Part shown: one piece after another, positions 483-19,479 of the stretch
Layout of the letters: every line of letters begins with the position of its first letter
How positions within the stretch are numbered: the stretch's first letter is position 1
IMG/VR virus record: IMGVR_UViG_3300027969_000053
Source of the DNA: an uncultured virus (IMG/VR IMGVR_UViG_3300027969_000053)
Taxonomy: Duplodnaviria > Heunggongvirae > Uroviricota > Caudoviricetes
Direction: 5' to 3' (one strand)
DNA: 20,000 nt
The notes under the pieces: generated by a model
The model's input: only the letters and a program-made list of their open reading frames with translations
What the model was told of the DNA's origin: nothing
The model's database searches: none
Translations under genes and position numbers: made by a program

Positions 483-484
483 CT

Positions 485-1405: not shown

Positions 1406-1424
1406 AGGCATTTTAAACTAAAAT
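1396..1424 (+). promoter_or_regulatory. Putative sigma70-type promoter
   Basis: TTTACA (1396-1401), 17 nt spacer, TAAAAT (1419-1424), at the only sizeable intergenic gap of the island, upstream of the 1454 ORF. Confidence 0.45.
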
Positions 1425-1453
1425 ACATAGTACATACACTAATAAGTTAATTT

Positions 1454-2500
1454 ATGAGTCAATATAAAAAAACTGCACTTGTTCTTGGTGCGGGTGGCTT
1501 TATTGGAAGTCATATGGTAAAACGATTGAGATCCGAAGGATATTGGGTCACCGGAGTAGATGTTAAACTCCCAGAATATTCTAAAAGTGAAGCAAATGAA
1601 TTCATCCTTGGAGATTTGACAAATCAATTATTTACTGATAAAGTAATAATGTTTAAAGGATATCAACAAAACTTTTATAAATTTGTCCCATCCAAATACA
1701 TATCAGCATTTGATGAAATATATCAATTTGCCGCTGATATGGGAGGTGCTGGATATATTTTTACTGGAGAAAACGATGCTGATGTGATGAACAATTCTTG
1801 TTCTATCAATTTGAATATTCTTCGCTCGGTTAAAAATTTAAATGACAATCTTGGCGTGAATAAAACAAAAATATTTTATTCGTCATCAGCGTGTATGTAT
1901 CCAGAGCACAATCAATTAGATCCTAATAATCCAAACTGCCGTGAAGAATCTGCTTATCCCGCTAGCCCAGACTCTGAATATGGATGGGAAAAACTTTTTT
2001 CAGAACGTCTTTACTTTGCGTACAATAGGAATTATAATATACCTGTGCGTGTATGTCGCTACCATAACATCTTTGGCCCCGAAGGGACCTGGAAAGGCGG
2101 AAAAGAAAAATCCCCAGCAGCAATTTGTCGCAAAGTAGCAGAACTTCCTGATCTTGGTGGATCCATTGAAGTTTGGGGTGATGGGGAGCAAACTCGTTCG
2201 TTCCTTTATATCAATGAATGTATTGAAGCGACACGAAGATTGATGGAATCTGATTTTATGGGACCAGTCAATATTGGATCTGAAGAGATGGTAACAATCA
2301 ATCAACTTGTGGATATTACTGCTAAAGTTTCCAGCAAAACAGTACAGAAAAGATATAAATTGGATGCTCCCCTTGGTGTCCGTGGTCGTAATTCTAATAA
2401 TGACTTAATTCGTAAAGAACTCGGTTGGGATTATAGTATGACTTTAGAAGAGGGTATTACAAAAACTTACAAATGGATTGAGGAACAATTAAATGGTTGA
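1454..2500 (+). CDS. NAD-dependent epimerase, GDP-mannose 3',5'-epimerase-like
   Basis: GAGGFIGSH, FAADMGGAGYI, YSSSACMYP, YGWEK, RYHNIFGPEGTWKGGKEKSPAAICRK, GVRGRNSNN; these match GME-family motifs. Confidence 0.85.
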   Translation: MSQYKKTALVLGAGGFIGSHMVKRLRSEGYWVTGVDVKLPEYSKSEANEFILGDLTNQLFTDKVIMFKGYQQNFYKFVPSKYISAFDEIYQFAADMGGAGYIFTGENDADVMNNSCSINLNILRSVKNLNDNLGVNKTKIFYSSSACMYPEHNQLDPNNPNCREESAYPASPDSEYGWEKLFSERLYFAYNRNYNIPVRVCRYHNIFGPEGTWKGGKEKSPAAICRKVAELPDLGGSIEVWGDGEQTRSFLYINECIEATRRLMESDFMGPVNIGSEEMVTINQLVDITAKVSSKTVQKRYKLDAPLGVRGRNSNNDLIRKELGWDYSMTLEEGITKTYKWIEEQLNG

Positions 2501-3146
2501 AAATTTTTCTTGGAGTGATAATAGAAGAGAAGATTGGAGAGATTATGTCCGTTCTTTGGAAAATGATAATATAAGTGAAATTCTTGGAGCAATTCCATCA
2601 GGATGGAATGTACCACCAAAAAGTCATAATGAATTTGTGATTTGGTTGATGAATAGAATTGATCCAAAATTAACTGTAGAACTTGGAGTTGATTGGGGAT
2701 ATTCATCTTTTATGCTTGCTTTGAATACAAAAAATGAGGTTGTTGGTATTGATTGTTTTGATATTTCAAAACATAGTTTAAGAAAAGATGATGACTATCA
2801 ATTTGTTATGGACATAAAAGAAAAACTAAAACTTGATAACTTAGAAATTATTAAAGGATATTTTGACGATGTAGCAAAAACTTGGAATAAAGAAATCAAT
2901 CTTCTTCATATTGATGGTCTTCACGATTATAATAATTGTAAAAATGATTGCGATACCTGGGCGCCATTTTTGGAAGAAAGAGGTGTAGTATTATTCCACG
3001 ATACTATTTCAAATCCAGATGGAGTTGGACTTTTCTTTTCTCAACTTGAACTTCCAAAAGTGAATTTTACCAATTCTTGTGGATTGGGTGTTGCTTCAAA
3101 TGATGTTAAATTGATTGAAGAAATTAAACAAGTTTTTAAACTATGA
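2493..3146 (+). CDS. Class I SAM-dependent methyltransferase (Methyltransf_24-like)
   Basis: VELGVDWGYSS, GIDCF, LLHIDGLHDY, GVVLFHD motifs. Confidence 0.8.
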   Translation: MVENFSWSDNRREDWRDYVRSLENDNISEILGAIPSGWNVPPKSHNEFVIWLMNRIDPKLTVELGVDWGYSSFMLALNTKNEVVGIDCFDISKHSLRKDDDYQFVMDIKEKLKLDNLEIIKGYFDDVAKTWNKEINLLHIDGLHDYNNCKNDCDTWAPFLEERGVVLFHDTISNPDGVGLFFSQLELPKVNFTNSCGLGVASNDVKLIEEIKQVFKL

Positions 3147-3679
3147 TTAAACTTATAATCCTTGATGTGGATGGTGTTCTTACTGATGGCACCAAATATT
3201 ATGATCATGATGGGAAAGTAGTTCTTAAACTTTTCTGTGATAAGGATTGGACTGCAATTAAAAGGTTTCGTGCTATTGGAATTCCAGTTGTTTTTATAAC
3301 TGGCGATCCTTATAATGAGATCATTCTTAAGAATAGAAATCTCCCTGTTGTAGTGAATCGTGGCGAAGGATTTCATAAAGACAAAGTAAATTATCTTGCA
3401 GAAGTTCTTGATGATTACAATTGTCTTGTAGAAGAAGTTGTTTATCTTGGAGATGATCTTTTTGATTATGGTATAATGAGAGAGGTTGGATATCCTTATT
3501 GTGTGTTAAATTCACCAAGAACTCTTCAAGACATTTCTGTAGTTCTTCACTGTAATGGTGGAGAAAATGCAGTGATGTGTTTGTTTGAATATCTGGAGGA
3601 TAGAGAATTGATTCCGGTTGTTCCTTATGATGAGGTAATGTCTAAAATTTATGAACTTGACTTGAAGGAAAACTTTTAA
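3143..3679 (+). CDS. HAD-family phosphatase, KdsC/YrbI-like
   Basis: LDVDGVLTDG (motif I), ITG (motif II), K (motif III), YLGDDLFD (motif IV), GGENAV. Confidence 0.82.
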   Translation: MIKLIILDVDGVLTDGTKYYDHDGKVVLKLFCDKDWTAIKRFRAIGIPVVFITGDPYNEIILKNRNLPVVVNRGEGFHKDKVNYLAEVLDDYNCLVEEVVYLGDDLFDYGIMREVGYPYCVLNSPRTLQDISVVLHCNGGENAVMCLFEYLEDRELIPVVPYDEVMSKIYELDLKENF

Positions 3680-4350
3680 TGAAAGACATTTCTCTTTATG
3701 GGCATCTGACTATTGATACGATTCTTGACGGTAATTCTGAAAAGAAAAGTTTAGGATCAATGGCAAATGTTTGGAGATCTTTACTTGAGATTGATTCAAC
3801 ATTAAATATTGGACTTTCTCCAATTGATGTTGGTCAAGCACTTGTTTATATTGATAAACTTTCAGCACAAAGGTATTCAAAAGCAAATTTAAATCTAGTT
3901 CAACACAAAGTAAAAATCTTCGAATCAAAAGTTCACCATCTAATTTATCTCAATGAAATGTCTATTCATGATTTTATTCCAAAACTGAATGGTATTATCA
4001 CTGCAGATATATGTTCTGGAAAATCATTGAATAAAGATTTACTTAAGGGTGTAGATTATCTTTTTATTTCTGATGAAGATATTGATGGCAATCTTTCAGA
4101 TTACGTGAATACAATAAAGGGGTATGTGATACTTCATAGTTCATCAGGAAGCATTGTATCAAATGGAAAAGATGAGTTTTTCTATAAACTGCCTAAAGAT
4201 TTAATACTGAAAGGTGTTAATGTTCTTGGTGCTGGTGATACATTTGCGTCTTGTTTCTTATATAAATTACTAAGGAATGAAGGAAGCATCCACAACTGGA
4301 TCGAATTTGCTCATTTAAAGACAACTGAAATTATTAGGAATTCGATATGA
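3679..4350 (+). CDS. PfkB/ribokinase-family carbohydrate kinase (short)
   Basis: N-terminal GHLTIDTI...LGS and C-terminal NVLGAGDTFAS PfkB signature. Confidence 0.75.
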   Translation: MKDISLYGHLTIDTILDGNSEKKSLGSMANVWRSLLEIDSTLNIGLSPIDVGQALVYIDKLSAQRYSKANLNLVQHKVKIFESKVHHLIYLNEMSIHDFIPKLNGIITADICSGKSLNKDLLKGVDYLFISDEDIDGNLSDYVNTIKGYVILHSSSGSIVSNGKDEFFYKLPKDLILKGVNVLGAGDTFASCFLYKLLRNEGSIHNWIEFAHLKTTEIIRNSI

Positions 4351-5504
4351 AACCAAATATTCTTGTTCCGATGGCGGGACTTGGTAGTAGATTTATTAAA
4401 GAAGGATTTAAAGTACCAAAGCAGTTAATTAATATCAAAGACAAACATCTAATTGATATTTCGCTTGATTGTTTGAACTATGAAGATTGTAATCTAATCT
4501 TCGTGGTTAGGGATGAAACTGTTTATAATTTTCATATTGATGAACTCCTAAAGAAAAAGTTTGGTGAAGATATCAAGATTGTTATTATTGATAAACTTAC
4601 TGATGGATCTGTGAGCAGTTGTCTGTATGCAGAAGAATATATTGATAATGATGCGCCTCTTGTAATTCATACTCTAGATATTGAATTCCGTCCAGTATTT
4701 GATCCGCATACTATTAATAACTTGAATGCAGATGGACTCCTTTTGACATTTAAATCAAATTCTGCAAATTATAGTTATGCTGATGTTAATGAAGATGGAT
4801 ATGTAAAAAGAACTGCTGAAAAGAAAGCAATTAGTTCTAATGCCTGTGTTGGTATCTATGGATTCAAAAAAGGATCCGACTTCTGCAAGTATGCAAAGGA
4901 AATGATCGAAAGAGATATTAGAACTAATAATGAGTTTTATATTGCACCTTTGTATAATCTTCTTATTGATGATTGTAAGAAAATCGTTACTTCGGATGTA
5001 GATAAAATGCATGTATTTGGAACTCCTGATGAGTTTCATTTCTACAAAGAAAATGTCATTCGTAAGGTTGGTGATAAACCAATTGCTATTTGCTCAGACC
5101 ATTCTGGATTTGAATCAAAGGAAAAGTTTAAACATATTCTAGAAAAACACAATCTTGAGTATATTGATTTTGGAACTATCTTGAATAAGGATTGTGATTA
5201 TAGTGATTATATTGCACAAGCAGTTAAAGCAATTGCTGAGCGTGATTGTGATTATGGATTTGGTTTCTGTAGAACAGGTCAAGGTGTGAATATTTGTGCT
5301 AACAAATACAAAGGTATTCGTTCAGCACTTATCTATGATGATTTCTCTATGGAGATGGCAATCCGACATAATTGTGCTAACTTTTTTGCAATTCCTGCAA
5401 AAGATTATACTATCGAAAAAATGGATAAGTATTTGGAAATCTGTTCTACTCATAACTTTGATGGCGGTCGTCATCAGGTTCGTATTCAGGAATTAGAAAA
5501 ATGA
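4347..5504 (+). CDS. Fusion of a sugar-phosphate nucleotidyltransferase-like domain and a RpiB/LacAB sugar-phosphate isomerase domain
   Basis: N-terminal PMAGLGSRF...PKQLI, EKKAIS, NNEFYIAPLYN, FGTPDE. C-terminal SDHSG, DFG, DY, CRTGQG, ANKYKGIRSA, HNCAN, FDGGRHQVRI (RpiB). One continuous frame. Confidence 0.85.
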   Translation: MKPNILVPMAGLGSRFIKEGFKVPKQLINIKDKHLIDISLDCLNYEDCNLIFVVRDETVYNFHIDELLKKKFGEDIKIVIIDKLTDGSVSSCLYAEEYIDNDAPLVIHTLDIEFRPVFDPHTINNLNADGLLLTFKSNSANYSYADVNEDGYVKRTAEKKAISSNACVGIYGFKKGSDFCKYAKEMIERDIRTNNEFYIAPLYNLLIDDCKKIVTSDVDKMHVFGTPDEFHFYKENVIRKVGDKPIAICSDHSGFESKEKFKHILEKHNLEYIDFGTILNKDCDYSDYIAQAVKAIAERDCDYGFGFCRTGQGVNICANKYKGIRSALIYDDFSMEMAIRHNCANFFAIPAKDYTIEKMDKYLEICSTHNFDGGRHQVRIQELEK

Positions 5505-5821
5505 TTCAAGCAAATATTGTTGACTTTAAAGCAGGATGGTTTGTTGGGGACTTTGAACCATCTATTTTTAAGAATCCATTTTTTGAAGTTGCACACCATT
5601 CTCACACAAAAGGTCAACAAACTTTTCCTCATTACCATGCAGTCACTAATGAACTTAACTACATTGTAAAAGGTGAACTAATAGTATCTGGAAAGCATTT
5701 GAATGCAGGTAATATGTGGATCTATGAACCAAAGGAAATTTCTGATGTTGAGTTCTTGAGTGATGTTGATCTTATAGTAGTGAGATGGCCGTCTATTCCT
5801 TCGGATAAGTATATGGTATGA
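5501..5821 (+). CDS. Small cupin-fold protein
   Basis: GWFVGDFEP, HYH...ELNYIVKG cupin-like metal motif; ATGA-coupled to both neighbours. Confidence 0.65.
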   Translation: MIQANIVDFKAGWFVGDFEPSIFKNPFFEVAHHSHTKGQQTFPHYHAVTNELNYIVKGELIVSGKHLNAGNMWIYEPKEISDVEFLSDVDLIVVRWPSIPSDKYMV

Positions 5822-6285
5822 AACTGATAGCACATAGAGGTAATATTGTAGGACCTAATCCTCTAGAGGAGAATAAACTAGAATACATTGAAGCAGCAAT
5901 TGCAGGTGGATATGATGTTGAGATTGATGTAAGATGGGAAGATCATCAGTTTTATTTGGGACATGATGGACCACAATATTATGTCCCTATGACTTGGTTA
6001 GTTAAAAGAAAAGATAAACTTTGGATTCATTGTAAAGATTTTAAATCTTTGAATATTTTTTCTAATAGTCCAATAGATTTTAACTTTTTTTGGCATGAAA
6101 ACGATAAGTATACTTTGACTAGTAAAGGTTATATTTGGACTTATCCTGGGCAATTATTTGAAAATAATTCTGTTATTGTAATGCCAGAAGTATTCGACTT
6201 GCAAAATATTCAAGATAATGGTACAATAGCATACAGCAAAAAATCTTTTGCTGTATGTAGTGACTATGTGGAAAAATTTAAATGA
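5818..6285 (+). CDS. Glycerophosphodiester phosphodiesterase (GDPD)-like short protein
   Basis: LIAHRGN, EN, VEIDV, LGHD, WIHCK, VCSDY motifs. Confidence 0.7.
   Translation: MKLIAHRGNIVGPNPLEENKLEYIEAAIAGGYDVEIDVRWEDHQFYLGHDGPQYYVPMTWLVKRKDKLWIHCKDFKSLNIFSNSPIDFNFFWHENDKYTLTSKGYIWTYPGQLFENNSVIVMPEVFDLQNIQDNGTIAYSKKSFAVCSDYVEKFK
6199..6227 (+). promoter_or_regulatory. Possible internal sigma70-type promoter
   Basis: TTGCAA (6199-6204), 17 nt spacer, extended -10 TGgTACAAT (6219-6227), about 55 nt upstream of the 6282 ORF. Confidence 0.35.
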
Positions 6286-6893
6286 CATCTACGATTTCCC
6301 CAGTATTTAAAGAATTAAAACAATATGATAAAATTAATGTTATAGATGTTGGATCTGCAAGAGCATCTTTTTTGGTAGAATTGGAAAAATCCTTTGATCT
6401 AAAAAATGTTTATTCTATAGGAATTGATCCAATTGATTATGGAGTAGAATCTCATTATGATAAGTTTTATCGTGTTTGTCTGGATGACGTTAAAACTCCT
6501 CAAAAGCAAATATTTTATAACGATGATCAATCCTCTTCGCTGCTTTCTTCCAAAGGTGAAAAAATGGGCTTGGTTGACATTTTAAATATCAATAGCATTA
6601 TCGATGTTGATATACCAGAAAATATTATACATTTTATTAAAATAGATGCAGAAGGAAAGGATTTGTCTATTGTAAAATCTTTATCAAAACAAAATTTAAA
6701 TAGAACAAAATTTATTGCAATAGAATGTCCAAATAAAATTCCAAGATATGATGGCGAATATATTAAAAAAGATTGTATTGAATATTTTAATTCTATAAAT
6801 TTTGAATTTTTTTATGAATACGATACTAATATTGAATCTTGGAACAAATCAGATTTGAGTGATGTCGTTTTTATAAACAAACGAGAATTATGA
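6282..6893 (+). CDS. FkbM-like methyltransferase
   Basis: VIDVGSA, GIDP, SSSLL, FIKIDAEGKDLSIVKS, FIAIE. Confidence 0.7.
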   Translation: MTSTISPVFKELKQYDKINVIDVGSARASFLVELEKSFDLKNVYSIGIDPIDYGVESHYDKFYRVCLDDVKTPQKQIFYNDDQSSSLLSSKGEKMGLVDILNINSIIDVDIPENIIHFIKIDAEGKDLSIVKSLSKQNLNRTKFIAIECPNKIPRYDGEYIKKDCIEYFNSINFEFFYEYDTNIESWNKSDLSDVVFINKREL

Positions 6894-7630
6894 AAGTAGC
6901 ATTATGTTTATCCGGTCAACCAAGAGTAGTTGACATTGGGTTTCAAAAACTAAGCCAATCAATTCTTCAGCACAATGATGTTGATGTGTTTATTCATACT
7001 TGGTTTGATCCTGAAAATCTTAGTACAAATTCTGTCATTCCTGGCAGAGAATCTCATAGGTTAGATCCTCAAGCAATTGATAAATTGATTCATTATTATC
7101 AACCAAAACGCATTATGGTTGAAAAACCAAAAAAGTGGTCAAAAAGATATGAGTTTCCTGATAAGGTTTTTACACATTCGCATACTTGGGCACTTGAAGT
7201 TCCTGTAGGATTGGAAGCGGCAAAAGATTATATTTGTGATACTACAAATAGTATGTTTTATAGTATTATGATGTCAAATCTTTTGAAGGAGCAATATTCA
7301 ACAGAAATCGGAATTGAATATGATTTAGTAATTCGAAATAGAATTGACTATTCTCCTCATGTAGTGCTAAAATTGAATGAGATTCCAATAGATGATTGTA
7401 CACTAATATATCAAGATCTATATCAACCTGATGGTATGATTAGTGATTGGTTTGGTATGGGATCAACAAACACTATGAATGTTTTTTGTGGCGTATATAA
7501 TCAAATAGGTCATCTCATCCGACAATCAAATGAAGTTGATGGATATTGGTGCAATGAACTTCTTCTTAAACATCATATCAAAAATAATAAAATTAAAACA
7601 AATCCTATAGACTATCAAGTTCACTATTAA
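6890..7630 (+). CDS. Hypothetical protein, probable glycan-modifying enzyme or glycosyltransferase
   Basis: [40 protein letters not shown]; a pattern recurrent in viral glycan islands. Confidence 0.55.
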
Positions 7631-7631
7631 C

Positions 7632-8657
7632 ATGAAGAAAGCACTTATTACTGGCATTACTGGTCAAGATGGATCATATCTTGCGGATTTACTTTTGAGC
7701 AAAGGATATGAAGTTCATGGAATTATTCGTAGAAATTCAACATCAGATTGTACTGATAGAATTAATTATCTTTTAGGAAATCCCAAAATCACTTTACATT
7801 ACGGAGATCTAACTGATTTCTCAAATATTACATCTATCATTCAAGAAACTCGTCCTGATGAGATCTATAATCTTGCAGCACAAAGTCATGTAAAAGTATC
7901 TTTTTCCAATGCACTTTATACTGCTGATGTAGATGCTTTAGGTGTTTGTCGTATTCTTGAAGCACTACGAATTCTTGGCATGATTAATACGACCAAGTTT
8001 TATCAGGCAAGCACTTCAGAAATGTATGGTCTTGTTCAAGAAATTCCTCAACGTGAAGGTACAAAATTTCATCCAAGATCTCCTTATGGTGTGGCAAAAC
8101 TTTATGCTTATTGGATTACTAAAAACTATCGTGAAGCATATGGTTTGTTTGGATGTAACGGAATTCTTTTTAATCATGAAAGTCCTCGTCGCGGAGAAAC
8201 TTTTGTGACTCGTAAGATTACTAAAACTCTTGCAGAGATCAAGAATGGTAAACGTAGTCTACCATTAGAACTTGGTAATATAGACGCAAAACGTGATTGG
8301 GGTCATGCAAAAGATTATGTGGAGGCAATGTGGTTAATACTTCAACGTAATAAACCAGATGATTATGTTGTTGCAATGGGTGAACAGCATTCTGTTCGTG
8401 AATTTGTTGAGATTGCCTGTGAACATTTTGGATTTGATATTGAATGGAAAGGAGAGGGAATAGAGGAGGTGGCAGTCTTTAGAAATACAAATAATGTTCT
8501 TATAAAAATTAATTCAGAATTTTATCGTCCTGCTGAAGTTGATTCTCTTGTTGGTGATTCTAGTTATACTAAAAGCAGAATTGGTTGGATTCCCAGATAC
8601 TCTTTTTCTGATCTTGTAACGGAAATGTGCGATAGTGATTTGGAGGCAACAAAGTGA
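7632..8657 (+). CDS. gmd: GDP-mannose 4,6-dehydratase
   Basis: [81 protein letters not shown]. Confidence 0.96.
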
Positions 8658-9583
8658 AGAAAAGGATTGTATTTTGGGTAGAAAATAAACCATATCAAAC
8701 TTTTTCTTACATCTATGCTGGAATGAAAAAAGCATTTGAAAGATTGGGTTGTGAAACATATTGGTTTAGTGATTCTAATTATCCTTCAAAATTGGAGTTT
8801 GATTACTCGGATTGTATTTTTTTTGTAGATAATCAAGGTCCACTTGATTGGAATGTTCCTATTATTGATAGTGGAATTTATTTTTCTTATGATAAATTTA
8901 CAAATCTGGATAAGTATCTTGATAAGGTCAAGTGTCTTGTGAATTATCGAGTTGCTGAATTCAAAAAACCAATTCCGGATAATGATAGGTATATTGAAGT
9001 TGAAAAAGGAGTTACTTTTGATACTCAAGCACCAGAACCTTATAATGTTGTTTATTTTAGTTGGGCAACTAATTTGCTTCCTGATGAAATTGATTTTGAT
9101 TGGGCCAATAAACAGAGAAATGATGAATATAATTTTGTTGGTACTATTCATTCTCCCCGTCCAAATTCCAAACCCCTTCATCAAGATTTTATTGATATTG
9201 TAAAAAATAAAAATATTACATTCAATCATTATAATCCTAATATTAATCCTGCAACTGATCAGGAACATATTGAGATTCTTCAAAAATCGATGTTTGTTCC
9301 AGATTTTAGACCACAAGAACAAAAAGATAATTGGTATGTTTCATGTCGTGTTTTGAAGGCAATTAGTTATGGTTGTCTTACTGTTTCGGATTCTTCTTAT
9401 CTTAAACACTTTATTGATGATAGTCTTTTGGTTTCTGAAAATGCTCAAGAAATATTTGATCTTGGAATGAGAAATCAGTATAATAAAGATTTAATTGTAC
9501 ATCAAATGGAAATTATAAAAAGAGATCATACTTATTTAAATAGGTGCAAAGGTATTCTTCAAATCGTAGAAAATATAAAATGA
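8654..9583 (+). CDS. Putative glycosyltransferase (GT-B, CgeB/Glyco_trans_1_2-like)
   Basis: GTG start in a GTGA overlap; [25 protein letters not shown]-terminal pattern. Confidence 0.55.
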
Positions 9584-10437
9584 AAATTACAATTTTAGGT
9601 TCCAGTGGACAGATCGGTGCCTATCTTACCGAGTATCTGCGTAAAAAAGGACATGTAGTTGAAGAGTTTGATGTAGTTAATGGACCTTCACAGGATATGA
9701 CCGTAATTCCTAATCAATATCTTGAAATAAAAATTAGAGATTCTGATTTTGTATTCTTCCTTGCATTTGATGTGGGTGGATCACGTTATCTTAAAAAGTA
9801 TCAACATACTTTCCAGTTCATTGATAATAATACTCGTTTGATGGCAAATGCTTTTGGATTTCTTCAAAAGTATAATAAGAGGTTCATCTTTGCCTCATCT
9901 CAGATGAGTAACATGAGTTATTCTCCTTATGGAGTTCTCAAGAACGTTGGTGAACTGTATACCAAATCACTTAAAGGACTGATCGTTAAGTTTTGGAATG
10001 TTTATGGTATTGAGAAAGATCAAGAAAAAGCACACGTCATCACAGACTTTATTCGTAAAGGATTTGAGACTGGTTTGATTGATATGCTTACTGATGGCGA
10101 AGAGGAACGTGAGTTTCTTTATGCTGAAGATTGTTGTGAAGCACTTGAAACCATTATGGAGAATTATACTGACTTTACCTCAGAAGATAATCTTCATATT
10201 ACTAGTTACCATCCAACTAAGATTATTGATATTGCAAATATGATTATTGGGCAATTTAATTTGATTGGTAAGTATGATATAAAACTTCAACCATCTACCG
10301 AAAAAGATAGTGTTCAGATGGATAAAAAGAATCGTCCAGATTTATATCTTTCTAAGTGGTGGATTCCCAAAACAACAATAGATCAAGGAATTTCAAAAGT
10401 TTTTAAAAGTATGGAGAAAAATTATGTTAGCGTGTAA
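9580..10437 (+). CDS. NAD-dependent epimerase/dehydratase (extended SDR)
   Basis: Likely start is ATG 9580 (ATGA overlap). GSSGQIG, FLAFDVGGSRY, ASSQM, YGVLK (YxxxK), NVYG, REFLYAED. Confidence 0.85.
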   Translation: MKITILGSSGQIGAYLTEYLRKKGHVVEEFDVVNGPSQDMTVIPNQYLEIKIRDSDFVFFLAFDVGGSRYLKKYQHTFQFIDNNTRLMANAFGFLQKYNKRFIFASSQMSNMSYSPYGVLKNVGELYTKSLKGLIVKFWNVYGIEKDQEKAHVITDFIRKGFETGLIDMLTDGEEEREFLYAEDCCEALETIMENYTDFTSEDNLHITSYHPTKIIDIANMIIGQFNLIGKYDIKLQPSTEKDSVQMDKKNRPDLYLSKWWIPKTTIDQGISKVFKSMEKNYVSV

Positions 10438-11266
10438 TCAACTTGGCAATAATGGAAGACTTGGGAATCAAATGTTCCAATATGCTGCACTAAAAGGTAT
10501 CGCACATCGTAGAGGATTTGATTATTGTATTCCCCCATTTGACCAACAAGGAATTGATAATTATGGACTTGGTGATGCCTTTAATATTAAATCTTTTACT
10601 GGTATAGCAAATCTTCCATCAGTTGGAGAACCTCATTTTCATTACAGTGAAGAATTTCACAATACTTGTCCAGATGATGTTACTCTTGTTGGATATTTCC
10701 AAACTGAAAAATATTTCAAAGATATTGAAGACCAAATCCGCCAAGACTTTATTTTTAGAGATGAATGGATGGAACCCTGTAAGGGGTTTCTTCAAGAGTT
10801 TGAGGGACAAGAGATCGCTTTCCTTCATGTTCGCCGTGGAGATCCAAATCTAGTGGATCGTAGGGGATTTAAATGGGCATACGTGAATTGTTCCGATCAA
10901 CATCCAGTTCAATCTTTGGAATATTATGAGGAGGCAATCAAGAGATTGCCAGAAGATATGCCGATACTTGTTTTTTCTGATTCAATTGAATGGTGTAAAG
11001 AACAAGAATTCTTTCAACCAGATAGATTTTTATTTTCGGAATCAGAAGACAAATATTCAGATGGCGCTTTGGTTCCATATGTTGATTTGTGCTTGATGTC
11101 CTTGTGTGATCATGCTATAATTGCTAATAGTAGTATGAGTTGGTGGGGTGCTTGGTTGATGAAAAATCCAAACAAAAAAGTAATCGCACCAAAAATGTGG
11201 TTTGGAACAGCATATTCTCACCACATCACAAAAGACATTTACTGCGATAATTGGGAGATTATTTGA
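10424..11266 (+). CDS. GT11 family alpha-1,2-fucosyltransferase-like glycosyltransferase
   Basis: GRLGNQMFQYA, GYFQTEKYF, HVRRGD, VFSDSIEWCK, NSSMSWWGAWL. Confidence 0.9.
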   Translation: MLACNQLGNNGRLGNQMFQYAALKGIAHRRGFDYCIPPFDQQGIDNYGLGDAFNIKSFTGIANLPSVGEPHFHYSEEFHNTCPDDVTLVGYFQTEKYFKDIEDQIRQDFIFRDEWMEPCKGFLQEFEGQEIAFLHVRRGDPNLVDRRGFKWAYVNCSDQHPVQSLEYYEEAIKRLPEDMPILVFSDSIEWCKEQEFFQPDRFLFSESEDKYSDGALVPYVDLCLMSLCDHAIIANSSMSWWGAWLMKNPNKKVIAPKMWFGTAYSHHITKDIYCDNWEII

Positions 11267-12093
11267 TGATTTATATTTCTGGGTCTAATGGATTGATCGG
11301 AACAGAACTGACAAAAAATATTCAAAACTATATTCCAATCTCTTATAGGAATCAATATCCAGAAATAAATTTTTTATCGAATTCTACATTGATTCATTTA
11401 TCTTCATCAACCACTCCTAGAAATAGTTTTGGTGAATTGCAATCATCATTTAATAGTGATGTTTTGATTCCTTTTGAATTGTTTCAAAATTATTTAAAAG
11501 TAAATTCAAATGGAAGAATTATTTTTCTTTCTACTGCTGGGGATTTACATAGTTCTGAATTTGATGTTTGGTCTAATGAAGAATCAGAACCTATTCCAAA
11601 GTCAATTTATGGCGCACATAAATTACTTTTAGAACATTGTACAAAGTTACTTCATAGTCAATATGATTTTACGAGTATAGTTTTAAGAACTACAAATGTT
11701 TATGGTGGAAAGATTGACCCAAAAAGAGTGAATGGATTGATTGATAAATTGATTTCAAATAATAATGAAATCGTAATAACATCAAATATTAAAACGACAG
11801 TTAATTTTATTCATATTAGTGATTTGATTAGTTTAATTTTGCAATCATTGGATGCGAATCTTAAAGGATTTAATTTATTTTTGGTTGGCAGTGAAAAATC
11901 CATTTCTATTCAGGATTTGATTGAAAAAATATCATCATATATTTCTCCAAATATTGTATTTAAAAATGAGAATTCAAATCCCTCATACATAAACATAGAC
12001 ACCTCAAAGGTGCAAAAATATCTCAATTGGAAATGCAAATATTCAATTGATAGTGGTATAATTAAACAAGTACAATCTTTGAATTCTTTATGA
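11266..12093 (+). CDS. NAD-dependent epimerase/dehydratase (divergent SDR)
   Basis: Likely start is ATG 11266 (TGATG overlap). GSNGLIG, FLSTAG, YGAHK (YxxxK), NVYG, NFIHISD. Confidence 0.75.
   Translation: MIYISGSNGLIGTELTKNIQNYIPISYRNQYPEINFLSNSTLIHLSSSTTPRNSFGELQSSFNSDVLIPFELFQNYLKVNSNGRIIFLSTAGDLHSSEFDVWSNEESEPIPKSIYGAHKLLLEHCTKLLHSQYDFTSIVLRTTNVYGGKIDPKRVNGLIDKLISNNNEIVITSNIKTTVNFIHISDLISLILQSLDANLKGFNLFLVGSEKSISIQDLIEKISSYISPNIVFKNENSNPSYINIDTSKVQKYLNWKCKYSIDSGIIKQVQSLNSL
12054..12062 (+). promoter_or_regulatory. Possible extended -10 promoter element
   Basis: TGgTATAAT at 12054-12062, about 28 nt upstream of the GT6 start; the -35 region is poor. Confidence 0.3.
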
Positions 12094-12809
12094 AAATTGC
12101 TATTTCATTTTTTGGGACAGGAAGTTATTTGAATTTTCTTCCTAATTGGTATACGTCCATTCATGATAATTTTCTTCCAGGTGTAGAAAAAAAGTTTATT
12201 GTATTTACAGATGGAGAGGGTGATTTTCCAGAAGATGTTACTAAAATAGAAATAGAACATTTTGGGTGGCCTGATGTTTTTTACAAAACATTTGAAACAA
12301 TCTTGAAAGCAAAAGAAATTATTTCTGAATGCGATTGGTTTATTTCTATTGATGCGGATATGATTGTTAATGGCAAAGTATCTATTGAAGAATTTATTGA
12401 TGAAACCAAAGATTATATTGGAGTTCATCATCCTTGTGCTTATTTAAAACTTCCACCACACGACAAATATCCAGGATCTTTTGATGTAAATCCACTATCA
12501 AATGCTTACATCACCGAAGATATGGATACTTCTGTTTATTATCAAGGATGTTTATGGGGTGGAAAGGTTCCTGAAATTATTGAAATGATGGAACTTTTAG
12601 ATGAATGGACAAAGAAAGATATTGAAAAGAATTCTACTCCCGTTTGGTATGAAGAATCTTATTTTAATAAGTTTTTTATTACAAACAAAGAAAGAGTACA
12701 TACACTTCCTCCGTCATTTGCTTATCCAGAAGACTTTAAACAATATTGCGATTTTGAAGAAAAAATCACACATATCTCTAAAAATAATCAACAATATCAT
12801 AATCAATGA
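12090..12809 (+). CDS. GT6 family glycosyltransferase (ABO/alpha-1,3-Gal(NAc) transferase fold)
   Basis: FGTGSY, VFTD, GWP, DAD, HP, YYQGCLWGG, WYEESYFNKFF (cf. GT6 WHDESHLN). Confidence 0.82.
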   Translation: MKIAISFFGTGSYLNFLPNWYTSIHDNFLPGVEKKFIVFTDGEGDFPEDVTKIEIEHFGWPDVFYKTFETILKAKEIISECDWFISIDADMIVNGKVSIEEFIDETKDYIGVHHPCAYLKLPPHDKYPGSFDVNPLSNAYITEDMDTSVYYQGCLWGGKVPEIIEMMELLDEWTKKDIEKNSTPVWYEESYFNKFFITNKERVHTLPPSFAYPEDFKQYCDFEEKITHISKNNQQYHNQ

Positions 12810-13588
12810 CTATGACTAAAAATTTATCAGTTTATTATCATATCTGGAGTCCTGGCGGAACGGATCTTTGGAAATTGATGGTAGACGAACAACTTAAAAG
12901 AATTTATCGCAATGGACTTACGGAAAGTGCTTCTATCTATTGCGCTATTAATGGACCACAAGCAAACCGAATTGCAGAATATATCTCCATCTATGATTGG
13001 TTAAATGTTCTTGATGTTTCAATTGATGAAAGTGAGTATGAAGGATTCACTTTAAAGAGAGCATACGAAGAGGCACATTTCAATCCAGATTTGAAAGCAG
13101 TTGCTTATCTTCATACAAAAGGCATTAGTCATATGTGTGGAGTTCGGGATCATTACTCTGATCGTAAGTTTAGAGCAGTGAATAGTTGGAGACATCAAAT
13201 GGAATGGGGCATTCTTGATCGGTGGAAAGAAGCGGTAGAAAAACTTGACGAATATCAAGTTTCTGGTGTAAATTATTGTTTGGATCCTTGGCCTCATATG
13301 AGTGGAAACTTTTGGTGGGCACGGGCGGATTATCTTAAAACTTTAATTCATCCCACTAGAGATAGATTTCCAAATGACAATAGAGATTTTGGACCAATTC
13401 AAAGAATGAATTTTGAAAAATGGATTGGACTGAATAATCCAAAATCTTTCAGTTTTTACGATGCTCCATTTAGTTATGATTTTAAAGGAATGACACCAGA
13501 TGTACAACCAACACCCCCAGGAGAACCGCATTGGTTCTGGTTGTACCGAGACGACATTGAACCCTATTATAGAAAGGAAGGTAACTGA
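12806..13588 (+). CDS. Hypothetical protein, probable glycosyltransferase-like
   Basis: YEGFTL, YLHTKG, SWR, HMSGNFWWARADY, EKWIG; motifs typical of viral glycan-island proteins. Confidence 0.55.
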   Translation: MTMTKNLSVYYHIWSPGGTDLWKLMVDEQLKRIYRNGLTESASIYCAINGPQANRIAEYISIYDWLNVLDVSIDESEYEGFTLKRAYEEAHFNPDLKAVAYLHTKGISHMCGVRDHYSDRKFRAVNSWRHQMEWGILDRWKEAVEKLDEYQVSGVNYCLDPWPHMSGNFWWARADYLKTLIHPTRDRFPNDNRDFGPIQRMNFEKWIGLNNPKSFSFYDAPFSYDFKGMTPDVQPTPPGEPHWFWLYRDDIEPYYRKEGN

Positions 13589-13589
13589 T

Positions 13590-14312
13590 ATGACTTTTGG
13601 ATGCTTTCATACAGTGTATGAAAATAAAAGAGCAACAGAGTTTATTTTGCAAGAGTTTAGAAAATATTATCCAGATGCTCCTTATACTTTGATTTGTGAT
13701 GGTGGAGTAGATTACTCTGATCTTGCTGTAAAGTACAATTGTAAATATATTCATTCGTATATGCATATTGGCAGAAGAAATTCTGGGGATCCTTCTGGAA
13801 TTTATGGATTCACAAAGGATGAAAGTCTTCATTGGATTCATATGTTTAGGGAGGCAGCAAGACACGTTAAAGAAAATGGTGGAACACATATGATTATGAT
13901 GGAAGATGATGTTCTCACTCAAGGTGAAGTGAAAATTAATCCAATTTGGGAATGTGCTGGATTTGATGTTCCGGGAAATAAAATTTCTCCTGGTCTTTTG
14001 AAGTTTATTGAAGAAAAGTATAATGCAAAACCAAATGTTGATTGGTATGGTGCTGGTGGCGGAACCATTTATAATATTGAAACATTTTTAGATAACTATC
14101 ATAAAATCTATGATTTTATTGATTTTGATTTTGAAAATATTCTAGAAAATATGGATTATAGATTTGGTTGGTTGGATCTTTATATGCAAATTGCTTATTT
14201 TGTAATTGGTAAACATTATTCAATTAATACAAATTTAACTGAAGTTTGGAAAACACCAAACTTTAGGGATAGTGAATTTACTCTTGTTCATGCTTATAAG
14301 GAATTATACTGA
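13590..14312 (+). CDS. Putative GT-A fold glycosyltransferase
   Basis: Likely start is ATG 13590, 1 nt after the previous stop. LICDGG, MMEDDV, GAGGG, C-terminal LVHAYK. Confidence 0.55.
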   Translation: MTFGCFHTVYENKRATEFILQEFRKYYPDAPYTLICDGGVDYSDLAVKYNCKYIHSYMHIGRRNSGDPSGIYGFTKDESLHWIHMFREAARHVKENGGTHMIMMEDDVLTQGEVKINPIWECAGFDVPGNKISPGLLKFIEEKYNAKPNVDWYGAGGGTIYNIETFLDNYHKIYDFIDFDFENILENMDYRFGWLDLYMQIAYFVIGKHYSINTNLTEVWKTPNFRDSEFTLVHAYKELY

Positions 14313-15289
14313 TGAAAATTGCATTTATTGGACCTGGAATTATGCCCATTCCTCCTGATGGGTGGGGGGCAGTTGAATCTTTAATCTGGGAAATTGCTTG
14401 TGAACTTGGGGAAATGGGTCATAGTGGAACAATTATTAATGATCCAAATTTGAATGAAATTATTAAAACAGTCCAACAAGATGAGTACGATTTCATTCAT
14501 TTATTTTATGATGTTTTTCACCCAATTATGGATGAGATTAAAAGGTTGTGTCCCAAATCTATAACTGCGATTAGTAGTGCTTATCCTTATGTGGATCAAT
14601 TTCAATTTCATCAAAGAGATGGATATGATAAAACATATAAGTGGTTGATTGAACAAAAAAATCATTATAATTTTTGTTTGTCTGATAAAGATTTTGAAAC
14701 ATTTAAAAAGGGTGGAGCAGACGAATCAAAACTTTTGAGACTTGGACTTGGTGCTCAACATAAGAATTTTAAATTTAATATTGAATGCGAAAAACCAAAT
14801 AAAACCCTATATATGGCAAAAATTGAAGTTAGAAAACGTCAATGGGTCTATCAGTCAATTGATAGCATTGAGTTTGTTGGTAGATATTCTCCCACAACTA
14901 CATTTGATAAACTTCATAAAAGTTATATTGGAGAGTGGACAACAGAACAAAAACACGAAAATGTAACCAAGTATGCAAATTTACTTCTTCTTTCTGATGG
15001 TGAAAATGGGACTCCGCTCGTAATTAAAGAGGCACTTGTTTCTGGTATTGGTGTGGTTTGTTCTAAGTATGCTGCTTATGATTTGGATCATAGTCTTCCA
15101 TTTATTACAGTTGTTCCTGATGATAAATTAAATGACTTGAATTATGTGAGTAATGCAATTAAAGAAAATCGTGAAGTATCTGTGAACATGCGACAGCAAA
15201 TTCATGAATATGGTGTAAATAATTTTTCTTGGGAGAATATTGTAAAACCTTATATTCAAACTATTGAAAAATTGGAGAGTGTTCAGTGA
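14312..15289 (+). CDS. GT4-like glycosyltransferase (paralog 1)
   Basis: IGPGIMPIPPDGWGAVE, AKIEVRKRQ, LLSDGENGTPLVIKEALVSG (Ex7-8E), FSWE. Confidence 0.85.
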   Translation: MKIAFIGPGIMPIPPDGWGAVESLIWEIACELGEMGHSGTIINDPNLNEIIKTVQQDEYDFIHLFYDVFHPIMDEIKRLCPKSITAISSAYPYVDQFQFHQRDGYDKTYKWLIEQKNHYNFCLSDKDFETFKKGGADESKLLRLGLGAQHKNFKFNIECEKPNKTLYMAKIEVRKRQWVYQSIDSIEFVGRYSPTTTFDKLHKSYIGEWTTEQKHENVTKYANLLLLSDGENGTPLVIKEALVSGIGVVCSKYAAYDLDHSLPFITVVPDDKLNDLNYVSNAIKENREVSVNMRQQIHEYGVNNFSWENIVKPYIQTIEKLESVQ

Positions 15290-16239
15290 AAATCTGCATC
15301 ATTGGTCCTGGATTTTCTCAAATTCCACCAGTTGGTTGGGGTGCTGTTGAAATTGTAATTTGGGATACAGCAAATACGTTGAAAGAATTAGGACATCAAG
15401 TAGATATTATTAATACTACTGATCCCCAACAAATTCTTTCAACAATTAATCAAATTAATCCGGATTTTGTTCACGTTCATTATGATGATTATGTCTTCTT
15501 GTATCCATATATTCAATTTCCAAAAGCAATTACAACGCATTATGGATATCTAGAAAGACCAGAAATGTATGGTGCTTACTCATATAAAGCAAATGGATTT
15601 GCAAATATCAAACCAAATGTTTTTGCTTTGTCTGATGGTATTAAAAGTATCTATCAAAATCAAATGAGAATTCCGGAACAAAACTTATATACTGTTCCAA
15701 ATGGTGTGATTAATGAGAATTTTAAATTTACTAATACACCAGAATTTCCAAATAGATCAATCTACCTAGCAAAAGTAGATTACAGAAAGAGGCAGTGTTT
15801 ATTTCAATCAATATCTTCAATTTATTATGCTGGAAATATTGTAGATGAAAGATTTGATAGAAATAAAAATTATCTTGGGGAATGGTCAAAAGAAGATTTG
15901 TATAATAATTTAACTGATTATGCGAATCTTATTTTACTCTCTGATGGTGAAGCACATCCACTTGTTTGTATGGAAGCACTCTCTGCTGGATTGGGTCTTG
16001 TGATTTCTGAATGGGCAACTGCTAATTTGGATTTAAATAAAGATTTCATTACTGTTATTCCTGAAAGTAAAATTATAGACTTGGAATATGTGTCTTTAAA
16101 AATTGAAGAAAATAGAACAATATCTTTACAAAAAAGAAATGAAATAGTAGAGTATTCAAAAGAATTTGCTTGGAAAAAACAAATTGAAAACTATTATATT
16201 CCTGCTGTAAAACAAGTTATGCAAAAATCTAATGGATAA
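15286..16239 (+). CDS. GT4-like glycosyltransferase (paralog 2)
   Basis: GTG start; IGPGFSQIPPVGWGAVE, VPNG, AKVDYRKRQ, LLSDGEAHPLVCMEALSAG, FAW. Confidence 0.85.
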   Translation: MKICIIGPGFSQIPPVGWGAVEIVIWDTANTLKELGHQVDIINTTDPQQILSTINQINPDFVHVHYDDYVFLYPYIQFPKAITTHYGYLERPEMYGAYSYKANGFANIKPNVFALSDGIKSIYQNQMRIPEQNLYTVPNGVINENFKFTNTPEFPNRSIYLAKVDYRKRQCLFQSISSIYYAGNIVDERFDRNKNYLGEWSKEDLYNNLTDYANLILLSDGEAHPLVCMEALSAGLGLVISEWATANLDLNKDFITVIPESKIIDLEYVSLKIEENRTISLQKRNEIVEYSKEFAWKKQIENYYIPAVKQVMQKSNG

Positions 16240-17029
16240 AAACAAATCTACCTACAAACTTCAAGGAATTGGTCCAATTTATTACATTAATCTTGATGGA
16301 CAACCAGAAAGAAAACAATATGTAGAAGATCAATTTGAGTATTGGGAAATTGAAAATTACACTCGTATTTCTGCTTATGATGGTCGTAATGATGATTTAA
16401 GTGATATTATATCTGGTCGTTATCCAGATAATATGACTTCTGGTGAGATTGGGTGTGTCACCTCCCACCTTAAAGCAATCAAGCATTGGTACGAAACAAC
16501 AGATAGTCCATATGCAATTATTATGGAAGATGATGTTGATCTGCAACTTGTAAAGAATTGGGATTTTTCTTGGAAAGATTTTTACTCATTGATTCCCTAT
16601 GATTGGGATGTAGTTCAACTTGCTATTATTTGTACTGGACCTTTACATATCAAACTTCATAAAAGATTTGTAAATAACTTTTCTACTGCCGCTTATATGA
16701 TTAATCGGCATCACGCAGAAAAACTTTTAAAGTTTCATATTCGGGGTGATAAGTATAAACTTGATAATGGATGCAAACCAAGAGCGGTTGCAGATGATCT
16801 AGTTTATAATTCTGGAAATACTTATAGTATTCCTTTACTTCTTTATAAAATTCAATTGGGTTCTTCTATTCACCCAGAGCACGTTGATATTTTTCACAAA
16901 TCAAGTCACGATGGTCTCTTAGAATTTTGGCAACAGAAAGGGGCAGGATTGAATATTCGGGAACTGATGGATTATGATCCTTATCTTGGTAGAATTACTG
17001 AAAATGTTCCAGAACAAAGTAACACTTGA
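16232..17029 (+). CDS. GT25 family glycosyltransferase
   Basis: YYINLD..ERK, RISAYDG, GEIGCVTSH, IMEDDV, WDVVQL, STAAYMI. Confidence 0.85.
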   Translation: MDKNKSTYKLQGIGPIYYINLDGQPERKQYVEDQFEYWEIENYTRISAYDGRNDDLSDIISGRYPDNMTSGEIGCVTSHLKAIKHWYETTDSPYAIIMEDDVDLQLVKNWDFSWKDFYSLIPYDWDVVQLAIICTGPLHIKLHKRFVNNFSTAAYMINRHHAEKLLKFHIRGDKYKLDNGCKPRAVADDLVYNSGNTYSIPLLLYKIQLGSSIHPEHVDIFHKSSHDGLLEFWQQKGAGLNIRELMDYDPYLGRITENVPEQSNT

Positions 17030-17081: not shown

Positions 17082-17291
17082 ATGACTGTAACAACCAATG
17101 AGCGCGGGCAAAATAATATGTGGGCACTTGAGCCAAAAGTTTATATTTCTGATGAAGATGCAATCAAATATGGAATTAAAACTTATGCCGAACGTGCAGA
17201 GCTTGCTAATGGAAAATTTGCGATGCTTGGATTTGTTGCCGCAATTATATCTTATGCGACAACAGGACACCTCTTTTTTGGTGTAATCTAA
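17082..17291 (+). CDS. hli: High-light inducible protein (Hlip), long form
   Basis: MTVTTNERGQNNMWALEP N-terminus and AERAELANGKFAMLGFVAA...TG helix motif. Confidence 0.92.
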   Translation: MTVTTNERGQNNMWALEPKVYISDEDAIKYGIKTYAERAELANGKFAMLGFVAAIISYATTGHLFFGVI

Positions 17292-17390: not shown

Positions 17391-17510
17391 ATGAAATTCG
17401 GATTTACCCCTGAGGCAGAACTTCTTAATTCTCGCCTCGCAATGCTTGGATTTGTAATCGCAGTTGGCACTTATCTCGCCACTGGGCAAATTCTGCCTGG
17501 AGTATGGTGA
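17391..17510 (+). CDS. hli: High-light inducible protein (Hlip), short form, 39 aa
   Basis: ATG 17391 preceded by GGAGA; MKFGFTPEAELLNSRLAMLGFVIAVGTYLATGQILPGVW. Confidence 0.93.
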   Translation: MKFGFTPEAELLNSRLAMLGFVIAVGTYLATGQILPGVW

Positions 17511-17670: not shown

Positions 17671-17704
17671 TTGACAGGACCCAGGGACCGTGCTATGATA
17701 AATA
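17671..17704 (+). promoter_or_regulatory. psbA promoter: sigma70 promoter overlapped by a T4-like late-promoter motif
   Basis: TTGACA (17671-17676), 17 nt spacer, TGcTATGAT (17691-17699); ATAAATA at 17698-17704. Confidence 0.8.
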
Positions 17705-17858: not shown

Positions 17859-18938
17859 ATGACTGCTACAATTGCTACACGTTCTGATAATAATGTCTGG
17901 GAACAGTTTTGTTCTTGGATTACTTCTACCGACAACCGTCTTTATGTTGGTTGGTTCGGTGTTCTACTTATTCCAACAGTTTTAACTGCAACCATCTGCT
18001 TTATTCTTGCTTTTATTGCGGCACCTCCAACAGATCTGGACGGAATTAGGGAAGCAGTATCTGGTTCTCTAATGTATGGCAATAACATTATTAGTGCTTC
18101 AGTAATTCCTAGTTCTAATGCCATAGGATTGCATCTATACCCAATTTGGGAAGCACAATCTCTGGAAGAATGGCTATACAATGGAGGCGAATATCAACTT
18201 ATTGTTTTCCATTTTATGATTGCAATTTATGCTTATATGGGTCGTGAATGGGAACTTTCATATAGGTTGTCAATGCGCCCTTGGATTTGTGTTGCTTATA
18301 GTGCTCCTGTTGCTGCTGCTACTGCTATCTTTCTTGCTTATCCAATTTCACAAGGTTCATTTTCTGATGGATTTCCTTTGGGAATTTCGGGCCAATTTAA
18401 TTTTATGTTAGTCTTTCAGGCAGAGCATAATATTCTTATGAATCCGTTTCATATGTTAGGTGTTGCTGGTGTTTTTGGTGGCGCTTTAGTTTCTGCCACT
18501 CACGGATCACTCGTAACAAGTTCTCTTGTGAGAGAAACTACTGAGGAGGAAAGTCAAAATAAAGGATATAAATTTGGTCAAGAACAAGAAACTTATAATT
18601 TAGTTGCCGCACACGGGTATCTGGGTCGTCTTCTGTTTCAATATGCATCCTTTAATAATAGTCGTTCATTGCACTTTGTGATGGCTGCACTACCTGTTAT
18701 TGGTATTTGGTTTGCTGCTTGTGGAATTTTTATGTCTGGTTTTAATCTCAACGGTCTAAATTATGTTCATAGTATCCAAGATAACCAAATGAGAACAATT
18801 CCTACTTGGGCGGACGTATTGAACCGGGCAAATTTGGGAATTGAAACAATTCACGAAAGAAATAGCCATCAGTTTCCATTAGATTTGGCATTTTCTGCTG
18901 GTTCGGAAATTGCACTTATTGCACCTTCAGTTGGTTGA
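17859..18938 (+). CDS. psbA: Photosystem II reaction centre protein D1, intronless and highly divergent
   Basis: 359 aa, colinear with standard D1 numbering. D61, H118, E130, Y161, D170, E189, H190, H198, H215, H252, S264, H272, H332, E333, H337, D342 and A344 are all present. Confidence 0.98.
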
Positions 18939-18963
18939 TAAAAAACTGAATATATGATAAATG

Positions 18964-18991
18964 AAGAGACCCATCAAAGGGTCTCTTTTTT
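18964..18991 (+). terminator. Rho-independent terminator of psbA
   Basis: AAGAGACCC-ATCAAA-GGGTCTCTT followed by TTTT. Confidence 0.85.
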
Positions 18992-18993
18992 GT

Positions 18994-19000
18994 CTAAATA
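18994..19000 (+). promoter_or_regulatory. Putative T4-like late promoter for the endonuclease gene
   Basis: CTAAATA immediately after the psbA terminator and 26 nt before the ATG at 19027. Confidence 0.5.
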
Positions 19001-19026
19001 TTTAAAATTAATCAACTTAAAAATAA

Positions 19027-19479
19027 ATGAAAGAATTAGAAAGGAAATGTAGAGACTGTGGTTTAATTAAATCAATTGCTGAATATTATAGAACAACTTA
19101 TAAGAAAAAGGAATGTTATCATACTAATTGCAAATCTTGTTATATTAAAAGAAATCAGGAAAGATATGACCCAATAAAACAAAGAGATAATAATTTAAAA
19201 CGTTTATATGGAAAGCAATTTGGAATTGATGAATATAATAAACTTCTAGAGAAGCAAGATTTTAAATGTGCTATATGCAAAACTACTGAAATTAAGGGTA
19301 GAAAAACTGGTAGAGGGGGGCAGATAGAAGTTTTTTATGTAGACCACGATCATAAGACGGGAAAAGTTCGTGGATTGCTTTGTAATATATGCAATAGAAC
19401 TATGGGTTATGTTGGTGAAAATTCTGGAGTGTTGGAAGAAATGATTAAATACCTACAAAAACACCAACCCACACCTTGA
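19027..19479 (+). CDS. Endonuclease VII-family free-standing (homing) endonuclease, F-CphI-like
   Basis: N-terminal CxxC...CxxC; Q..KCAIC, VDHDHKTGKVRGLLCNICNRTMG EndoVII signature; directly downstream of psbA. Confidence 0.85.
   Translation: MKELERKCRDCGLIKSIAEYYRTTYKKKECYHTNCKSCYIKRNQERYDPIKQRDNNLKRLYGKQFGIDEYNKLLEKQDFKCAICKTTEIKGRKTGRGGQIEVFYVDHDHKTGKVRGLLCNICNRTMGYVGENSGVLEEMIKYLQKHQPTP

Follow-up and report, generated by a model that had tools for sequence, protein, structure and literature searches.

The psbA gene of an uncultured lake cyanophage encodes a photosystem II (PSII) D1 protein with changes at a number of sites, among which the QB pocket stands out as a genuine focus. Eight substitutions in and around this pocket (hereafter, the module) are old, conserved, and exchanged between phage genes, and their core pair is also found in spare D1 copies of some cyanobacteria. 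Taken together, these features point to a putative, reusable retuning of the site at which electrons leave PSII. The mobility of the module, the coupling of the L255/V274 pair, and the cellular parallels are new here.

The psbA gene lies at positions 17859..18938 (+) of the window, the 20,000-nucleotide stretch of viral DNA that we analysed; its open reading frame and alignment reveal a complete, divergent D1 protein of 359 amino acids and no intron. Upstream, a sigma-70-type promoter-like site (17671..17699, +; 11/12 matches and an extended TG, by consensus match only) precedes a PhotoRC-II cis-regulatory RNA in the psbA leader (Rfam RF01717; 17728..17818, +; scoring 60.4 bits where the cut-off is 39), and an intrinsic-terminator-like hairpin follows the gene (18963..18988, +). 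Further downstream is a free-standing gene of the endonuclease VII family (19027..19479, +; PF02945, E=5e-21), which, from its position, is likely to be a homing endonuclease. Two ORFs located 5’ of psbA (17082-17291 and 17391-17510, both +) are taken to be hli-like on the basis of a motif; in Pfam, the second gave a weak PF00504 match under the cut-off and the first had no match. The end of the window thus reads glycosyltransferase-rich island, two hli-like genes, psbA, and endonuclease VII-family gene. About 25 sugar-nucleotide or glycosyltransferase-like genes follow each other in a row at positions 1-17029; one of them (4347-5504) joins a nucleotidyltransferase to an isomerase of the RpiB type.

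Gene content identifies the bearer of this psbA as a T4-like cyanophage. Among virus records, G001 (40.5 kb) comes closest; it overlaps the window, stops before psbA, and encodes a gp61-type primase that is 59% identical to that of S-SSM7; Gp23 was recovered in carrier records G006 and G007, i.e. in two of the five fragments searched. By eye, an ORF resembling Dps or ferritin was spotted in record G001 as well, upstream of the window (L210:894-1328). The tree and the gene context suggest freshwater picocyanobacteria as the host. No second psbA and no psbD was detected in nine carrier fragments, which, at 5-58% completeness, are too partial to establish absence, and double matches proved to be halves of split genes. 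In the lake metatranscriptome X11, three short contigs (17923-18096, 18219-18391, and 18461-18625; depth ~3) show no differences to psbA, a weak hint of transcription that contigs alone cannot prove. That X11 contigs were missing from the rest of the window carries no weight as evidence.

Alignment of the viral protein to the solved D1 chains 7yq7_A and 6wj6_A is gapless, and canonical D1 numbering therefore applies. The Mn4CaO5 ligands are complete (D170, E189, H332, E333, D342, and A344, directly followed by F345), and Y161, H190, D61, H337, H198, H118, and E130 are retained, as are the residues serving the QB head group, the protons, and the iron (H215, L218, V219, E244, Y246, A251, H252, S264, F265, N266, L271, and H272). 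The same residues are found in 19/19 of the first-found carriers of the module, some of which are near-duplicates, save H332 (18/19), D342 (17/19), and A344 (17/19), where the exceptions are ends of shortened or intron-split matches. Judged by its ligand set, which defines Groups 3 and 4 in PMC4408414, the viral protein classifies as a standard water-oxidising D1. We considered a pseudogene or drift and rejected this option, as the frame is open and nonsynonymous divergence (pN) is far below synonymous divergence (pS). Stop codons in the projections of four relatives (L169, L172, L191, and L194) probably reflect read-through into introns; within this lineage, inserts that are probably group I introns split psbA at a number of differing sites (L006, L022, L025, L169, L171, L183, L191, and L194), and some of these inserts contain ORFs.

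A previous, sequence-only reading of this DNA had proposed a remodelled QB and herbicide-binding pocket, and alignment to the solved D1 chains bears out all of the residues it named: F211V, M214T, I248L, F255L, I259L, F274V, L275M, and W278L are present, and H215, H252, S264, F265, and H272 are unchanged. By alignment to D1 rows, the module covers codons 211-278 (18489..18692, +), with V211 at 18489-91, T214 at 18498-500, L248 at 18600-02, L255 at 18621-23, L259 at 18633-35, V274 at 18678-80, M275 at 18681-83, and L278 at 18690-92. The aromatic residues F211, F255, F274, and W278, as well as M214, are replaced by smaller ones, and ~235 cubic angstrom of side chain are lost over the eight positions, as estimated from residue volumes. 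Assembly errors do not explain these substitutions, given that contigs of the DNA runs X1 (17934-18833) and X2 (17934-18942) span psbA and L188 is identical to the gene across codons 1-298. X1 is possibly the source of the window, and none of the 20 differences of its contig lies before 18755; a contig from X4 spans 18449-18762 and shows a single difference. An AlphaFold2 model computed from a 20-row alignment reached a pLDDT of 40 and was unusable.

The proposed clustering of the changes around the QB site stood at the level of individual contacts and fell at the level of the stretch. For the chance test, we used 236 reference D1 rows and considered a position conserved at >=90%; the 19 module carriers, 26 rows with L255 and V274, P0014 (discussed below), two atypical D1, and rows of <320 residues were left out. 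The viral D1 alters 22 of the 225 positions conserved to this degree. There is no enrichment in stretch 211-278 (7/57 altered inside vs 15/168 outside; Fisher p=0.31), and clustering along the sequence is not significant (p=0.21-0.36). Of the QB-contact residues named in PMC8398153, 5/10 are altered (p=0.001), as are 5/13 when additions from PMC4030317 are included (p=0.004) and 3/8 at a 95% conservation cut (p=0.01), with apparent conservation at 211, 255, 274, and 278 being inflated by dropping the 26 L255+V274 rows. Changes beyond those noticed previously are M172F (18372-74) and T179Q (18393-95), which lie on the ChlD1 side (18372..18395, +) and belong to a subset of module carriers only; further changes are G164S, V58T, P66A, A336S, N338Q, and residues 288-294. 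The latter stretch (18720-18740), near ChlD1 and the lumenal end of helix E, is rewritten and conserved in a carrier subset.

Several of the altered residues have been assigned roles in the literature. F211, M214, F255, F274, and L275 are placed in the QB niche (PMC8398153, PMC4030317, PMC7368266), and the pocket has been termed conserved from cyanobacteria to plants (PMC8398153, PMC9454826). F255 ranks first among the contributors to QB head binding and F211 touches the tail (PMC4030317), M214 forms the isoprenoid pocket (PMC7368266), and quinol release has been proposed to hinge on I259 (PMC9454826). For PsbA3, the isoform of high light, easier QB exchange has been attributed, as a proposal, to one substitution close to QB, and the lipid SQDG, held beside QB via S270 and N267, has also been proposed to affect exchange (PMC9709244). 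F274V is a weed mutation associated with resistance to atrazine, metribuzin, and diuron (PMC6843678, PMC13756829), which was not functionally validated according to PMC6843678; F255I confers triazinone resistance (PMC13756829), and P162S/F211S results in 8.2-fold atrazine resistance and slightly reduced QA-to-QB efficiency (1-VJ 0.518 vs 0.548; PMC3629139). The accessible part of PMC12096807 has no phage or viral mention, and those of PMC10300377 and PMC7184784 do not name the residues we looked for. Among the positions previously put forward as herbicide sites, resistance is on record for changes at 211 (P162S/F211S) and 255 (F255I), and a herbicide role is presumed for 248 and 275.

None of the 512 phage records searched carries the module, with the best record reaching 76.6% identity over the whole D1 and 83.9% over residues 204-294, and T214 and M275 do not occur together among the best 80 of 181 bacterial-genome relatives. 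A search for the V274-M275 motif yielded 15 viral and 29 metagenome stretches, with psbA in 36/43 new loci. The 28 distinct DNA segments that resulted, L192 and 27 phage-like ones, were chosen on 274 and 275 only, and share L255 (28/28), L248 (27/28), and T214 (26/28). In this set, mean pS is 0.69 vs a pN of 0.074 for codons 205-280 (whole gene: 0.71 vs 0.129), documenting that purifying selection holds the module while its silent sites have reached saturation. Such saturation among carriers would make the module far older than herbicide use, and selection by man-made herbicides is therefore not supported. Altered plastoquinone exchange and lower inhibitor affinity, which had been suggested along with it, stay plausible.

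Given that the 19 carriers had been chosen on the module itself, trees were built without columns 205-280. Sixteen carriers still cluster (SH-aLRT 95), and P0014, which combines the backbone of the lineage with an ordinary QB segment, is nested among them; in the smaller backbone tree used for AU tests, the carrier group falls in two. A single origin of this group thus appears likely, though not firm. Five carriers on contigs of ~50% GC (L176, L186, L198, L200, and L201) are 89-94% identical to the window D1 over residues 205-285, but only 72-78% before and 65-69% after this segment. Third positions of L176 and L186 differ at 0.35 within the segment and at 0.55 outside. At least three psbA backbones bear the module, as one backbone clade for 11 carriers was rejected (AU p=0.01, computed with P0014 left out, because forcing the nested P0014 outside inflated the test to p=5e-5). 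The contrast in identity between segment and backbone, together with the rejected clade, indicates that the module moves by recombination and does so independently of M172F and T179Q. Together with L007 and L175, these five carriers are found in contigs of 47-51% GC, with neighbours unlike those of the T4-like locus.

The 3’ end of psbA varies as well. A patch of codons 299-354 (18753..18920, +) varies among genes that are the same elsewhere, and with the patch the gene that follows changes too: when window positions 18753-19479 are compared to L188:2203-4074, psbA is identical to codon 298 and continues into a divergent patch and another downstream gene. Run X1 contains both forms of the patch, and the difference resembles what co-conversion alongside a homing endonuclease would leave. 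A further long-branched viral D1 (L079:305-1384 and L078:1-1008) from the same type of phage locus has Q214, W260, and K335, has lost H252, and may be a throttled or non-standard D1.

L255 and V274 form a coupled pair. In 219 distinct segments from 429 rows, the residues at 255/274 were F/F (156), L/V (47), F/L (14), W/L (1), and L/F (1), meaning that L255 accompanies V274 in 47/47 distinct V274 segments and is found once without it; as the sample was enriched for L255/V274 rows and shared ancestry is common, these represent a handful of lineages and not 47 events. Among the best 80 of 181 genome relatives, 23 loci, nearly all from Nostocales, encode a D1 with V, I, or L at 211 together with L255 and V274. 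L278 is present in 21/23 of these loci, and the catalytic residues are intact (e.g. L085, L090, and L130). This paralogue, located at about 4001-5083 in L085, L090, L130, and the 20 other loci, is an extra copy beside ordinary D1 in 5/5 genomes checked, and in 21/23 loci it is arranged head-to-head with an NB-ARC/WD40 gene, the full-length product of which has ~1190 amino acids. The paralogue and the viral module have in common an aliphatic residue at 211, L255, V274, and mostly L278, whereas the paralogue keeps M214 and L275 and has added W260 and V/I263, in many cases along with Q266 and W270. In the tree, the backbone of the paralogue is placed within the standard D1 of Nostocales, a joint clade with the viral core was rejected (AU p=0.023), and third positions of viral and cellular segments differ at 0.56, i.e. 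are saturated; the likeness may stem from either convergence or ancient transfer of the segment.

Other cellular-type genes carry the pair, too. L243:1170-3268 combines all three D1' markers (A80, L158, and A286) with L248, L255, L259, W260, and V274, and is followed by a fatty acid desaturase gene; P0094 also has L255 and V274. L192:1-3373 encodes a cellular-type D1 with V211, L255, W260, V274, and M275, and a ketosynthase gene of type I PKS-like character lies ~1 kb away; this layout, seen on a single contig of 3.9 kb, may serve self-resistance. Among 400 sampled cyanobacterial genomes, the V274 motif was present in one besides the centre. Our literature search, to which subscription journals were mostly outside coverage, returned neither a description of the Nostocales paralogue, which Sheridan et al. 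(2020) may describe, nor an account of a module-bearing viral D1.

As a tentative explanation, which we favour, looser quinone binding would keep water-splitting PSII turning over in infected cells. The viral psbA would be expressed in infected freshwater picocyanobacteria and its D1 would assemble with host D2. The wider and less aromatic pocket would bind plastoquinone and plastoquinol more weakly, and easier departure of the product would allow PSII to continue turnover while infection keeps the quinone pool reduced, as we assume to be the case in infected cells. Weaker binding of diuron, atrazine, and metribuzin would be a by-product and not the cause; it is expected under most readings because F274V, F255I, and F211S each have this effect singly. 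We count as support the intact catalytic set of the 19 first-found carriers, the gene's own promoter-like site, PhotoRC-II RNA, and terminator-like hairpin, the low pN relative to pS, the enrichment at QB contacts, the L255+V274 pair in the D1'-marked L243, and, weakly, the X11 contigs, along with the published roles of F255/F211, M214, and I259 and the PsbA3 exchange proposal. Against it, ordinary viral D1 manages without the module, as seen in 0/512 phage records carrying it, and P0014 has an ordinary QB segment on the backbone of the lineage. Sequence does not dictate which way the effect goes, and looser binding may also slow the flux, as the 1-VJ of P162S/F211S illustrates.

The main rival to looser binding, possible but doubtful in our view, is tolerance to a natural inhibitor of the QB site, that is, an allelochemical made by plants, fungi, cyanobacteria, or other bacteria. 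With host D1 blocked, the phage D1 would then sustain PSII activity, while the paralogue of Nostocales would act as a resistant spare that can be induced, perhaps under the control of the NB-ARC/WD40 protein encoded next to it. V274 being the exact residue of resistant weeds, and changes at 255 and 211 also conferring resistance, speak for this option, as do an additional Nostocales copy, kept beside ordinary ones, that has lost the same four aromatics, its head-to-head arrangement with the NB-ARC/WD40 gene, the ketosynthase gene adjoining L192, and a patchy occurrence that suits a resistance trait. However, S264, the commonest resistance site, is unaltered, and a literature search on psbA self-resistance produced nothing relevant; likewise, no PKS/NRPS was recognised 10-20 kb upstream of the paralogue in 5/5 genomes (by eye from ORF starts), and L192 is but one short contig. 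We consider it unlikely that the module serves as a throttle, in which lower QB occupancy slows linear electron output in favour of photoprotective recombination or cyclic flow, providing ATP for phage replication from a centre that stays assembled. While loss of F255 removes a main binding contributor, atypical D1 such as the rogue-type L139_b alter the same positions, E130, the high-light form, is present in 19/19 first-found carriers, and M172 and T179 are also altered in a carrier subset, all QB protonation and hydrogen-bond residues are retained, unlike in rogue D1, and one change of S264 would make a simpler throttle.

The module could also have no special function, representing an early, compensated burst of changes that was locked by epistasis and spread by co-conversion with psbA-targeting homing endonucleases or introns. 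An endonuclease VII, GIY-YIG, or other ORF 3’ of psbA in the carriers inspected, the switch after codon 298 between the window and L188, the divergence of the whole protein without enrichment in stretch 211-278, and the tight L255-V274 coupling, which compensation predicts, all fit this scenario; yet we hold it to be quite improbable, considering that the amino acids are held though silent sites are saturated, that the pair recurs in cellular paralogues whose inspected neighbours include no such endonuclease, and that the block is kept on unrelated backbones. There is very little to recommend a fit to lipid or quinone in the exchange cavity, e.g. altered SQDG occupancy or a modified prenylquinone, in place of an effect on kinetics, even though F274 and W278 presumably contact the SQDG tails. 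SQDG binding via S270 and N267 (PMC9709244), S270W as an addition in many Nostocales copies, and the desaturase gene adjoining L243 would agree with such a fit, but the phage allele retains both S270 and N267 and no lipid or quinone gene was recognised by eye in the 40.5 kb of G001. Equally far-fetched is a loosened one-sidedness of PSII, by which some electrons would travel down the normally silent D2 branch directly to QB, bypassing QA. M172F, T179Q, and M214T are all present beside the widened pocket, and, in PMC7368266, M172 and T179 head a QM/MM list of residues lowering ChlD1 vs ChlD2 excitation energy and M214 heads the list disfavouring PheoD2 reduction. Against this stand a calculated gap of 409 meV, the retention of D61, D170, Y126, R27, and R136, and the many T214 carriers that keep M172 and T179.

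Regardless of which explanation applies, an alternative, pre-compensated QB pocket has persisted in phages and travels as a block, and its two-residue core also occurs in spare cellular D1 copies. The module thus offers a natural set of alleles for asking what the QB aromatics do and whether viral and host D1 differ in function. It also places a herbicide-resistance residue in lake viruses and cyanobacteria without herbicide selection, and if a natural inhibitor drove the module, there would be an unrecognised chemical conflict around photosystem II.

Known D1 types share some, but not all, of these features. Trees place the viral D1 among standard D1 of picocyanobacteria and cyanophages, and it does not group with L092, L101, and L104, which appear to be far-red D1, a type that forms its own clade and has a cluster of 12 residues around ChlD1 (PMC9325196). 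D1INT, for which we take W126 and W260 as markers, is represented in our alignment; the viral D1 has Y126 and F260. With D1' (Group 3), a class expressed at low oxygen (PMC4408414), it has A80 and A286 in common but keeps F158, and A80 occurs in only 9/19 carriers; position 172 is altered in D1' and far-red-like rows, as it is in the viral D1. Rogue D1 and ChlF (Groups 2 and 1) show loss of Mn ligands and changes of S264, E244, or H252, none of which is found in the viral protein, although the rogue-type L139_b is altered at 211, 214, 248, 255, 274, and 278. Ordinary D1 of T4-like cyanomyoviruses (e.g. S-CREM1, S-RIM8, and S-PM2) resembles the viral D1 in family, catalytic residues, and surroundings, where psbA is accompanied by hli-like genes and an endonuclease that stands free, and differs in its identity of at most 76.6% and the absence of the module in 512 records; talC, zwf, and gnd-like ORFs were recognised by eye in relatives. 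Finally, the herbicide-resistant alleles F274V of Raphanus raphanistrum, F255I of Capsella, and F211S of Chlamydomonas match the module in the same residue at 274, an aliphatic residue at 255, and a smaller one at 211. In contrast to these single and recent mutations, the viral module consists of eight coupled, ancient changes made around an S264 that has been kept.
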